DNA of 64,000 nt. It comes from an uncultured Actinomycetes bacterium. Lineage in GTDB: Bacteria > Actinomycetota > UBA4738 > HRBIN12. Each line of letters begins with the position of its first letter. The stretch's first letter is position 1. This document shows, piece by piece, positions 2,578 to 5,543 of this stretch. A program made the position numbers and the translations under genes. A model generated the notes under the pieces. It saw only the letters and a list, made by a program, of their open reading frames with translations, ran no database searches and was not told the origin of the DNA. Where the stretch lies: contig CAVPIB010000004.1 of NCBI GenBank assembly GCA_963704885.1, positions 250,044 to 314,043 on the forward strand, read 5' to 3'.

Positions 2578-3315
2578 ATGTCGCTTCGACCAGGCCCCAC
2601 GCGACCAGCGCTGCGTGGTCCGATCCGGTGGGGATCCGCGCCCAGACCGCGAGGGGGAACCAGGGCACTCGCGCGGTTGACGACCGAGGATGCCTTACGG
2701 TTCACCGGCACGGTCGCCCAGGCGGTTCCGTTCGTGGAGCGAGCGCGTGGATGGGAGGCCGTCGCCAACCGGGTGTATGGATCGGACCCGCGGTGCGGCT
2801 TCTTGTCCCTGGAGCCGTGGGCGAAGGCTCGCGAGCGCTGGAACCGGGGGCTCCGTAGGCTCGAACGAACGGCCCGGGTCATCGCCATCACCGACGTCAG
2901 GGAGTGCTACGCGTCCATAGGCCCTTCGGTCGTCCAGGACCAACTGGCGTCCCTGGGAACACCCTCTGGTATCGCGAGTGAGGTGGGGCGCTGGCTCGAG
3001 CTCCTCGGCGATGCGGGGGTGGTTGGCCTGCCGATCGGCCCCGAGGCCTCCGTGGTGCTCGCCGACGCCGTACTCCTGGCAGGCGATATCGCCCTTCGTA
3101 CGTCAGGGATCGCGCATCTGCGCTGGGTCGACGACGTCGTCATCGCCTCGCCTGATGCGCGGAGCGCGGTTCGGGCCCTGGATCGGCTGCGCCGGGCGTG
3201 GTCGACCGTTGGCCTGGAGATCAACGACGCCAAGACCCAGATGCTGGATCGGGATGGTTTCGGTGCCCTTCGCGCCCGATCGAATTCGCCCACGGGTGCT
3301 GCCTCGCTGCGATAA
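2578..3315 (+). CDS. Stand-alone minimal reverse transcriptase (RNA-directed DNA polymerase domain, 245 aa)
   Basis: PRPRGGTRALARLT (fingers), TDVRECYASI (motif A, Asp codon 2893), GLPIGPEAS..LADAVL (motif B, 3025), RWVDDVVI (motif C, 3121-3144), GLEINDAKT; ends about 25 aa later. Confidence 0.9.
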   Translation: MSLRPGPTRPALRGPIRWGSAPRPRGGTRALARLTTEDALRFTGTVAQAVPFVERARGWEAVANRVYGSDPRCGFLSLEPWAKARERWNRGLRRLERTARVIAITDVRECYASIGPSVVQDQLASLGTPSGIASEVGRWLELLGDAGVVGLPIGPEASVVLADAVLLAGDIALRTSGIAHLRWVDDVVIASPDARSAVRALDRLRRAWSTVGLEINDAKTQMLDRDGFGALRARSNSPTGAASLR

Positions 3316-3324
3316 TCGCCTCCG

Positions 3325-4839
3325 GTGAAGACCCTCCTGCGCGCGGCTCGGGTTCACACGCTCGCCTTCCCGGAGACCGGCGAGTGGGTCCTGGTGGACG
3401 GCAGGCACATCCAGCGGGTGGGGAGCGGGGCGCCGCCGGTGGCCGACCGCGTCGTGGACCTTCCAGGTGCGACGATCCTGCCGGGCTTCATCGACACCCA
3501 CGTGCACCTCACGGCGACCGGGCTGGCCCTCACGAACCGCGATACGGAGCAGGCGGCTTCGGCCTCGGAACTACTAGACCTTGCCCGGGCCCGCGCCTCG
3601 GGAGGTGACGGACCGATCTTCCTCCGAGGGTTCGACGAGACTCGATGGGACGACCCCAGACACCCGTCCATGGAGGATCTGGACTCCGTGACCGCCCGGC
3701 CACTGGTTCTGCAGCGGGCCGACGGTCACCTCGCGCTCGCGAACTCCGCGGCCCTTCACGCTGCCGGCCTGGCCGACGATGAGGAGGGCGTGGATCGCGA
3801 TGCGTCGGGCCGCCCGACGGGAAGGGTCACGCGGGAAGCGCTTCACCGCTTGGGTCGGTGGACGGCTGGGTCGCTCGACGACCACGCGATCCAGGAGCTC
3901 CAGCTCCAGGCGGCGGCGCTCGGCGCGTCTCGCGGCGTCACCGCGGTGCACGAGATGTCCATGCCTCACTGGTTCGGCCTGCGCGACCTCCAGGTGTTCC
4001 TGGGTCATCGAGAGCGGCTGCCGCTCGACGCCGAGCCGATCGTTGCCACCATGGACATCCCTCAGATCATGGATCTGGGACTGCCGGCTATCGGCGGCGA
4101 CCTACCCTTGGACGGATCGATCGGAGCTCGGACGGCAGCGGTCATGGCGCCCTACGCGGACGAGGCAGGCGCCGGAGCCTCCTACCACACCGATGACGAG
4201 CTGGCCGCGTTCTTCCAGGGCGGTCACGTCGCTGGACTCCAGGTCGGAGTCCACGCGATCGGGGATCGCGCCATCGAGCAGGTCTTATCGGTGTGGGAGC
4301 GCGTGTATCACGCGCTCGACTCCAGGGAACGACGACACTTCCGCGCGCGCCGCCACAGGGTGGAGCACTTCGAGATGGCCACCACGTCGCAGGTGGAACG
4401 CGCGGCCATGCTGGGTCTCGCGGTCTCGGTGCAGCCGACGTTCGACCGGTTGTGGGGCCAACAGGGCGGCCTCTACCAAGCGGCGCTTGGGTGGGACCGG
4501 GCGAGCTTGATGAACCCGTTCCGAACCATGGTCGAACGGGGGATCGAGCTCGGGGCCGGTTCGGATACGCCCGTGACGCCGTTCGACCCCATGATGTCGA
4601 TCGCTGCGTGTGAGTCGCATCACGCACCGGGGCAACGGCTCTCGAGGTTCGAGGCGGTCCGTCTCCACACAGTGGGAAGCGCGCGCATCGGACACCAGGA
4701 GGAGAAGAAGGGGGCGCTCGGCCCCGGAATGCACGCGGACCTGGTGGCGTTCGAGGAAGACCCCATGACCGCCACCTCAGTCGAGGATCTACGCCCGATC
4801 CTCACTCTCTCGCTGGGCCGGGAGGTCTTCGCGCGATGA
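3325..4839 (+). CDS. Amidohydrolase_3 / YtcJ-like metal-dependent amidohydrolase
   Basis: PGFIDTHVH, HAIGDRA, RHRVEH and GSDTPV motifs. Confidence 0.92.
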   Translation: MKTLLRAARVHTLAFPETGEWVLVDGRHIQRVGSGAPPVADRVVDLPGATILPGFIDTHVHLTATGLALTNRDTEQAASASELLDLARARASGGDGPIFLRGFDETRWDDPRHPSMEDLDSVTARPLVLQRADGHLALANSAALHAAGLADDEEGVDRDASGRPTGRVTREALHRLGRWTAGSLDDHAIQELQLQAAALGASRGVTAVHEMSMPHWFGLRDLQVFLGHRERLPLDAEPIVATMDIPQIMDLGLPAIGGDLPLDGSIGARTAAVMAPYADEAGAGASYHTDDELAAFFQGGHVAGLQVGVHAIGDRAIEQVLSVWERVYHALDSRERRHFRARRHRVEHFEMATTSQVERAAMLGLAVSVQPTFDRLWGQQGGLYQAALGWDRASLMNPFRTMVERGIELGAGSDTPVTPFDPMMSIAACESHHAPGQRLSRFEAVRLHTVGSARIGHQEEKKGALGPGMHADLVAFEEDPMTATSVEDLRPILTLSLGREVFAR

Positions 4840-4875: not shown

Positions 4876-4905
4876 TTGACGCTTCGGACATACGCGGCGT
4901 ACCTT
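4876..4905 (+). promoter_or_regulatory. Sigma-A type promoter driving an intergenic transcript
   Basis: TTGACG (4876-4881) - N18 - TACCTT (4900-4905). Confidence 0.6.
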
Positions 4906-4911
4906 TCGCGT

Positions 4912-5080
4912 CGCGTCACCGCCCCGGCGGAGGCGCACGGTAGGACCCAAGAGGCTGAGTAGAGAACGCGGCGCCCCGGCGTCGCGGCCCCAAAGGTCTC
5001 TTGGGTCCTTACCTGTTCTTGGCCCTTCCTCGCTCCTCGGGGAATGGATGGAGGCCCCGCGGTGTTGTGCCCGCGGCATC
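4912..5080 (+). ncRNA. Candidate structured small RNA, 6S-like architecture (or long structured leader)
   Basis: 15-bp stem 4939-4953/4998-5013 with one bulge; 14x12 internal loop; apical stem 4968-4985; hairpin 5026-5044; possible closing stem 4912-4922/5059-5069; flanked by two promoters. Confidence 0.5.
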
Positions 5081-5081
5081 G

Positions 5082-5110
5082 TTTGCAGCGTCATTCGACG
5101 GCAGTACAAT
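5082..5110 (+). promoter_or_regulatory. Promoter of DUF4193-lnt/ppm1
   Basis: TTTGCA (5082-5087) - N17 - TACAAT (5105-5110). Confidence 0.6.
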
Positions 5111-5165
5111 CCGCGCGCGACCGAGGCGGTCGAAGCTTGGAACTCCGAAGACATCGAAGGACCGG

Positions 5166-5543
5166 ATGACTGACATCGATGGATCCGTGGAGGACGACGA
5201 AGTGGCCGGCTCCGATGAGCCGGACGACGCCGAGCCCTCCGAGGCCGATCTACAAGGCGCCGCGGTGCCGGCCGAGCCCGTGGACCCCGCCGATCCGGTG
5301 AACGCCGAGGTGGAGTCGATCCAAGACCTCTTGGTGAAGCAGGAGGCGAGGGCCGAAGAGGAAGAGGCCGAAGACGAGGACGAGCCCGTGGTCGCCCTCA
5401 CGAAGGACGAGCGTCTCGAACCCGTGGAGACCCGCGTAGAGCCGATCCAGTCGACCGAGTTCGTATGCAAGAGGTGCTTCCTGGTCAAGCACAGGAGCCA
5501 GCTGGCAGACAAGAAGAGGATGCTCTGCCGAGACTGCGCCTGA
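5166..5543 (+). CDS. DUF4193 family protein (acidic, C-terminal Cys4 zinc finger)
   Basis: EFVCKRCFLVKHRSQLA...CRDCA C-terminus; GAAGGA SD before ATG 5166. Confidence 0.88.
   Translation: MTDIDGSVEDDEVAGSDEPDDAEPSEADLQGAAVPAEPVDPADPVNAEVESIQDLLVKQEARAEEEEAEDEDEPVVALTKDERLEPVETRVEPIQSTEFVCKRCFLVKHRSQLADKKRMLCRDCA

Follow-up and report, generated by a model that had tools for sequence, protein, structure and literature searches.

What does the 327-nt gap between the Amidohydro_3 gene (3325-4839) and the DUF4193 gene (5166-5543) encode? In the initial annotation of the window, by which we mean the whole 64,000-nt stretch of DNA analyzed, this gap carried a structured RNA of about 170 nt with its own promoter. 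It was read as a 6S/Ms1-like RNA, as a new small RNA (sRNA), or as the RNA partner of a reverse transcriptase (RT) encoded upstream. The gap houses an RNA gene that consists, from 5' to 3', of a promoter, a small hairpin, a long hairpin with an internal loop and a GC hairpin, and a pyrimidine-rich tail (Table 1). Judged by comparative sequence analysis, the RNA is a member of a real and strongly conserved small-RNA family that has no match in Rfam 15. The reading as a new sRNA is the one supported, by conservation of the promoter, covariation of the helices, G-U pairs specific to one strand, and a terminator-like tail.

Table 1. Features of the RNA gene and of the DUF4193 gene that follows it (positions in the window)
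Feature	Position	Strand	Basis
-35 element TTGACG of the RNA's own promoter	4876..4881	+	sequence and conservation
-10 element TACCTT (TAnnnT type)	4900..4905	+	sequence and conservation
Predicted transcript	4912..5025	+	start and end both inferred
P1, small 5' hairpin (GCGUC/GGCGC and CCGC/GCGG, loop CCCG), variable domain	4913..4936	+	MFE fold and RNAalifold
P2, 5' arm AGGACCCAAGAGGCU	4942..4956	+	15 consecutive pairs
Internal loop, 5' strand GAGUAGAGAA, consensus GAGUAGA-N-AA	4957..4966	+	invariant or nearly invariant in all lineages
P3, GC hairpin CGCGGCGC-CCCG-GCGUCGCG	4967..4986	+	covariation
Internal loop, 3' strand GCCCCAAA, consensus G-NN-CCAAA	4987..4994	+	CCAAA invariant or nearly so
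P2, 3' arm GGUCUCUUGGGUCCU, partner of 4942-4956	4995..5009	+	pairing, G-U cells
Pyrimidine/U-rich tail, probable intrinsic terminator together with P2-P3	5010..5025	+	T content, T-runs
ECF-type promoter motif GGAAT-N18-GTT, outside the RNA, presumably for DUF4193	5041..5066	+	conservation
Sigma-A-type promoter TTTGCA-17-TACAAT of DUF4193, outside the RNA	5082..5110	+	promoter scan and conservation
DUF4193 gene, 125 aa	5166..5543	+	Pfam PF13834, E = 1.2e-11

The promoter of the RNA is of the sigma-A type with an 18-nt spacer (TTGACG-N18-TACCTT, 4876-4905). It had already been proposed from the letters of the window and is borne out by conservation. The pattern TTGACN-N16-19-TAnnnT is found upstream of the RNA in 57 of 58 loci from the order to which the genome belongs, compared with 24 of 1180 control segments (2%). 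Across the order the -35 consensus is TTGAC(A/G/C), and the TAnnnT -10 element is positioned 44-54 nt 5' of the AGTAGA motif of the internal loop (57/58 loci). Other lineages have comparable -35/-10 pairs 5' of the RNA core.

At the center of the RNA is an evolutionarily supported helix of 15 bp, P2, in which AGGACCCAAGAGGCT (4942-4956) pairs with GGTCTCTTGGGTCCT (4995-5009). The long stem of the initial annotation therefore exists and is conserved, and its apical GC stem is likewise supported, at 4967-4986. Between the two, the internal loop given there as 14x12 is corrected to an asymmetric loop of 10x8 nt (GAGUAGAGAA / GCCCCAAA). Its sequence and its closing pairs hardly change over several deep lineages of Actinomycetota. 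Only position 8 is free in the 5' strand of this loop, and in the 3' strand the two bases ahead of CCAAA vary. Among 111 distinct sequences, P2 has several standard pair types at 13 positions, and the C-G and G-C pairs at the base of P3 are invariant (111/111). The inner pairs of P3 covary and its apical part depends on the subtype of the RNA. The pairs of the small 5' hairpin, P1, also covary, with both-sided changes in RNAalifold, and other lineages lack P1 or have a replacement for it.

For the covariation test, the 111 distinct sequences were drawn from all lineages and anchored on the invariant loop. Standard pairs account for 94.6% of the pair cells, versus 28-48% when the partner strand is shifted by 1-3 positions. 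The alignment scores 0.648 for covariation, compared with 0.24 in column shuffles; none of 500 shuffles reaches 0.648, and both-sided changes are present at 17 of the 22 pairs. A check with RNAalifold on related loci, as had been suggested with the initial annotation, also found strong helix covariation; in an alignment of 57 sequences there are compensatory changes at 15 of 27 consensus pairs. There are 264 G-U cells versus 35 A-C cells in the 111 sequences, and therefore the plus strand is the RNA. Compared with shuffled sequences the core folds with a z of -5.4, and with values between -3.7 and -5.7 in five lineages. For a 181-nt stretch the folding z is -2.7 on the plus strand and -0.9 on the minus strand.

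The same data bear on the reading that the hairpin is a mere terminator of the amidohydrolase gene or a protein-bound DNA palindrome. A GC-rich hairpin with a T-rich tail does lie 3' of a gene. However, a conserved promoter separates the stop codon from the hairpin, the loop letters are invariant as the stem covaries, the G-U pairs are confined to one strand, and each genome has one copy or two paralogous copies. We regard this reading as extremely improbable.

We compared the internal loop by eye with known RNA modules. A K-turn, an 11-nt tetraloop receptor, and a canonical sarcin-ricin loop (AGUA/GAA) did not fit it cleanly, and an S-turn-like arrangement with AGUA opposite AAA is possible. 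A pseudoknot between the apical GGGG of one subtype, type B, and CCCC of the loop was also considered; the loop positions vary without matching changes in GGGG, again by eye. None of the known protein-binding motifs was matched in the RNA.

Where does the RNA end? The initial annotation had extended it over a 3' hairpin (5026-5044) and a closing stem (4912-4922/5059-5069) to an end near GTTT. Neither structure is conserved, not even among members of the genus, in which the spacer past the long hairpin ranges from 60 to 143 nt, and both overlap the promoter motif at 5041-5066. The 5' half of the proposed closing stem falls instead in the covarying hairpin at 4913-4936, and GTTT is part of the DUF4193 promoter, in its -35 element. 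Because the 3' hairpin and closing stem are unconserved and two DUF4193 promoters occupy that DNA, the RNA is most likely about 105-115 nt long, with its 3' end just past 5009, in place of the ~170 nt first proposed. The start of the transcript was placed 6-8 nt past the -10 element, and its end was placed from the T-rich tail past the long hairpin and from the ECF-type promoter that begins at 5041.

The tail itself has the composition of a terminator. Past P2 the T content is 33% versus a background of 15.5%, and T-runs of at least 3 occur in 64 of 150 loci versus 2.4% of controls. In the lower-GC lineages clear U-tracts are found 3' of the long hairpin. With a promoter of its own, a conserved structure on one strand, a predicted intrinsic terminator, and non-coding character, the locus has what is expected, at the level of sequence, of a stand-alone bacterial sRNA gene.

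A search of Rfam 15 (gathering cut-offs and E <= 10) had also been suggested with the initial annotation. When run on the window and 35 related loci, it matched no family, including at the locus itself. A reading as 6C RNA was rejected; the 6C model (RF01066) has no match at the locus, and among 18 genomes its best hits fall at other places and score below cut-off. A reading as the small SRP RNA (4.5S, RF00169) was rejected because the SRP RNA was found at another place in 13 of 13 genomes (in the genome of the window at contig C1:333612-333711, 73 bits). In the papers searched we found no description of the RNA family, and a full-text search with the loop sequences gave irrelevant papers.

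To determine how widely the RNA is distributed, we surveyed related genomes by sequence and by covariance model. A DNA search found the stretch in all of 60 related genomes. The counterpart of 4942-5009 is 84-99% identical at the DNA level across eight families and 45 genera, compared with 40-80% for the flanking proteins. A first covariance model (R1) detected the RNA in 192 of the 201 genomes from the order, including 107 of the 109 high-quality ones. A more general model (R2) found it in 96 of 401 high-quality genomes of the phylum and in 68 of 253 sampled genera. The E-values from these custom models are rough, and the class-level sample comprised one order. An exact-pattern scan of named genomes gave at least 120 matches. 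Among the matches listed, the carriers include the cultured genera Actinomadura, Spirillospora, Microbispora, Microtetraspora, Nonomuraea, Serinicoccus, and Ornithinimicrobium, as well as 'Ca. Solincola' and many soil metagenome-assembled genomes. A repeat or mobile element was rejected on the copy number in the genome and on a single match in 2.9 million viral contigs. That sole exact-pattern viral match (an IMG/VR contig, locus L288:9229-9275) may be a host fragment or the flank of a prophage.

The family consists of two paralogues, type A and type B, which share identical conserved segments. In type A, to which this locus belongs, P3 is short and ends in a CCCC loop, and DUF4193-lnt follows the RNA in the order and in family f9. 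The type B RNA, of 79 nt, has a GGGGAAGG apical loop, and its neighborhood is made up of polA, a 4HBT thioesterase, DUF554, a DUF4352-lipoprotein, and an ABC-ATPase. Most families of the order encode both subtypes, 70-110 kb apart. The genome of the window has one canonical copy of the RNA and one degenerate type B copy. A pattern search found no second full copy in this genome; the degenerate one was detected by the model with filters off (27.9 bits) and lies outside the window on the minus strand of contig C4 (178047-178125, locus L319:2548-2626). It is about 1.6 kb from polA; the helix and the GGGGAAGG apical loop are retained, and the internal loop has diverged. Canonical type B copies in other families of the order score 78-86 bits.

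In a third group, of lower GC content and made up of family f31 and its relatives, dapA and an FAD oxidoreductase flank the core, and the 5' domain is larger. In seven lower-GC loci (L148, L150, L153, L122, L169, L174, and L185), a conserved 5' domain of ~70 nt is closed by CGUUCCGG / CCGGAACG; the RNA in these loci is probably ~170 nt long.

The distribution also settles the proposed link to the RT. The initial annotation had speculated that the RNA is the partner of the small RT at 2578-3312, which would make it a template, a primer, or a retron-like ncRNA. The gene order RT, amidohydrolase, RNA is conserved in family f1, as this reading would have it. However, several families with the RNA have no RT, namely f7 (none of 5 genomes), f31, f23, f68, f18, f14, f11, and f9, and in families f8 and f5 the two are 10-24 kb apart. 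The RNA is also present in Streptosporangiales and Micrococcales, has its own promoter, and is separated from the RT by the amidohydrolase gene. Since many lineages with the RNA lack the RT or encode it far away, a partnership of the two fails, and we give it hardly any credence; the RNA is independent of the RT. The RNA was also rejected as a retron or other RT-associated ncRNA, for which linkage to an RT is obligate. As a comparison of the window with genomes G040, G043, G049, and G059 showed, the RT adjoins the amidohydrolase gene in some families only.

The constant neighbor of type A is DUF4193, which follows the RNA at each of the 58 loci of the order whose flank is long enough. A gene for an Lnt-GT2 (Ppm1-like) fusion comes next. 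In the DUF4193 protein of the window, the N-terminal half is long and acidic, and the C-terminal part contains CxxC...CxxC. The spacer between RNA and DUF4193 ranges from 40 to 325 nt across loci and contains two promoters. The pattern GGAAY-N17-19-GTT is present between the two genes at 50 of the order's 58 loci versus 22 of 590 control segments, and by its sequence the motif at 5041-5066 may be an ECF promoter of the sigma-H/R/E type. The second promoter, whose TACAAT the initial annotation had assigned to the next gene, is recovered by a promoter scan and kept across genera as TTGCA-N17-gcaGTACAATcc. DUF4193 thus seems to be expressed from tandem stress and housekeeping promoters. At 5082-5128 the conservation of the DUF4193 promoter goes beyond the hexamers in many genera (TTGCA-N17-ggcaGTACAATccgcgcg), which suggests an extended -10 element or an overlapping regulator site.

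Given its constant position upstream in the order and in family f9, the RNA could possibly regulate the DUF4193-lnt operon by read-through. That the RNA is in essence a cis leader or attenuator, either riboswitch-like or a protein-controlled terminator, which gates read-through into DUF4193-lnt, is improbable. This reading would account for an RNA that is always 5' of DUF4193-lnt and on the same strand in the order and family f9, and for the conserved loop being placed in a terminator-like hairpin. It does not account for the two conserved promoters between the RNA and the start codon, of which the RNA is independent, for the range of spacer lengths, or for the same core being found near polA, the thioesterase, and DUF554, or beside dapA and the FAD oxidoreductase. 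No conserved alternative anti-terminator pairing was found. At loci L129 and L131 the gene downstream of the RNA is convergent, which excludes a 5' leader at these two loci. The separate promoters, the heterogeneous contexts, and the convergent genes speak against a riboswitch or other cis-leader class.

If the RNA acts in trans, it could do so by base pairing. Type A C-rich loops resemble the loops of base-pairing sRNAs in high-GC bacteria. An sRNA of the 6C or RsaE kind would use C-rich single strands, here the P1 loop CCCG, the P3 loop CCCC, and the internal-loop CCCC, to pair with the G-rich ribosome-binding regions of several mRNAs. Consistent with this, type A loops contain three C4 runs, conserved segments are identical between the paralogues, as is common among sibling sRNAs, the layout runs from promoter through conserved segments to terminator, and 6C itself was not detected above cut-off in these lineages. 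Against it, the conserved letters lie on both strands of the internal loop between invariant closing pairs and leave no open seed, the apical loops differ by subtype (CCCC in type A, GGGGAAGG in type B), and RF01066 does not match at the locus. A whole-genome scan for sites complementary to either strand of the loop found three 12-mers with ~2.5 expected, which is the chance level. The scan was for perfect matches, and its result is compatible with short or imperfect base pairing. One 12-nt site, complementary to GGCUGAGUAGAG, is ~30 nt upstream of an ATG in the genome of the window (contig C1:412072-412083) and is within chance. We consider base pairing as the mode of action unlikely, if still worth keeping in view.

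The helices covary, the closing pairs are invariant, and the two invariant loop strands face each other with defined free positions, which argues for a folded recognition module and not for a linear antisense seed. This signature together with the lack of targets beyond chance favors a stand-alone RNA that acts in trans by docking a protein, a reading to which we give an even chance. Transcription would start near 4912 from the strong sigma-A-type promoter. The RNA would fold into the variable 5' hairpin and the long irregular hairpin, and the latter with the U-rich tail would end the transcript ahead of both DUF4193 promoters. It would presumably be stable, abundant, and active in trans, and a conserved protein would dock on its folded internal loop, with the RNA as decoy, scaffold, or regulator. 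The transcription machinery, RNA polymerase and/or DUF4193, would be the leading candidate for the partner.

RNA polymerase or DUF4193 is a candidate partner of the internal loop in view of what has been reported for the DUF4193 protein. The homologue ML1026/Rv2699c is essential and its depletion sensitizes cells to rifampicin (bioRxiv 10.64898/2026.07.15.738315). The same study predicts DUF4193 on the beta' jaw, its N-terminus reaching into the downstream DNA channel of the polymerase (bioRxiv 10.64898/2026.07.15.738315). Gene neighborhood is the sole basis of the link between polymerase, DUF4193, and the RNA, and concerns type A only.

A more specific proposal would make the RNA a miniature 6S/Ms1-type RNA, a polymerase-associated 'mini-6S' of ~80-110 nt. 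Its helix, bubble, and helix, with the 15-bp helix P2, would lie in the nucleic-acid channel of the polymerase (core or sigma-A holoenzyme), possibly with or against DUF4193, and would replace the missing 6S. Such an RNA would sequester or tune the polymerase and perhaps template short product RNAs. The rod with its central bubble and the strong sigma-A promoter are consistent with this proposal, as is the position of the RNA, which in the order and in family f9 always adjoins the gene of a predicted polymerase binder. The 6S model (RF00013, gathering cut-off 46.4 bits) has no match above cut-off in any of 21 genomes of the order (G000-G012, G037-G044). Precedent comes from scr0792, an ~85-nt polymerase-bound RNA of Streptomyces coelicolor (PMC11077062), though its probe sequences have nothing of the motif.

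The other evidence speaks against membership in either family, and this more specific proposal is doubtful. The RNA has no sequence or structure match to 6S; RF00013 does not match at the locus at E <= 10, nor in the versions from Actinomadura and Geothermincolia-like genomes. As a rod it is also a poor 6S. The conserved unit is 68-79 nt with a variable 5' hairpin, compared with ~160 nt for the shortest known 6S, the closing stem is not conserved, and the bubble is 10x8. Canonical 6S (RF00013, 58-82 bits) is encoded at other loci in 8 of 8 genomes of families f31, f23, and f68 that carry the RNA, and because the two coexist there the RNA is not a 6S orthologue. Type B and the Geothermincolia-like copies also lie away from DUF4193. 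Ms1 is ~230-300 nt long and syntenic with a HAD-IB hydrolase and an oxidoreductase, and it is predicted in Actinomadura, Microbispora, Nonomuraea, and Spirillospora (PMC9130861). These four genera also carry the RNA described here, at a locus type other than that of Ms1. Both the size and the neighbors (amidohydrolase and DUF4193; for type B polA, 4HBT thioesterase, and DUF554) set it apart. The 6S/Ms1-like assignment of the initial annotation therefore fails on model match, size, closing stem, coexistence with 6S, and synteny with Ms1.

Few bacterial RNAs are widely conserved with invariant folded motifs, and several of these (6S, SRP RNA, tmRNA, riboswitches) act on core machinery. The RNA described here is nearly universal in a large uncultured order of soil bacteria and is also found in cultured genera, so its function is directly testable. 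With DUF4193 adjacent to it, the locus makes the question of polymerase-regulating RNAs in Actinomycetota without 6S open to experiment. The family could enter RNA databases, which would lead to a correct annotation of the gap of ~330 nt in many metagenome-assembled genomes.

Of the known systems, 6S RNA (ssrS, RF00013) also has its own promoter, is a mostly helical rod with a central bubble, and is present once or twice per genome, conserved like a housekeeping gene. Unlike 6S, the RNA here is about half the size, matches no model, and does not conserve a closing stem. Ms1 (MTS2823, scr3559), which binds the polymerase core, is likewise a non-coding RNA confined to Actinomycetota and has been proposed for lineages that lack a standard 6S; in contrast it has several hairpins, is much longer, and is linked to the HAD-IB hydrolase and oxidoreductase, and in the same genera the RNA here is encoded elsewhere. 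Like scr0792, the RNA is a short actinobacterial RNA, and scr0792 is a precedent for association with polymerase far below the size of 6S. However, GAGUAGA and CCAAAGG are absent from the 50 nt under its two published probes, and on those two sequences, which share no motif with the RNA, homology was rejected.

6C RNA (RF01066; B11 in M. tuberculosis) is an actinobacterial sRNA of <110 nt with C-rich hairpin loops and a terminator hairpin, all of which recall the RNA here. Unlike in 6C, conservation centers on the two strands of an internal loop, the 6C model finds no match, and C-rich loops are found in type A only, the apical loop of type B being G-rich. The raiA motif RNA is an orphan conserved structured RNA found by comparative genomics. 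Similar to such orphan RNAs, this family combines covariation with invariant loop letters, is widespread, and has no known function. It differs from them in sequence and structure, in its two paralogues, and in the layout of an sRNA gene that runs from promoter to terminator.
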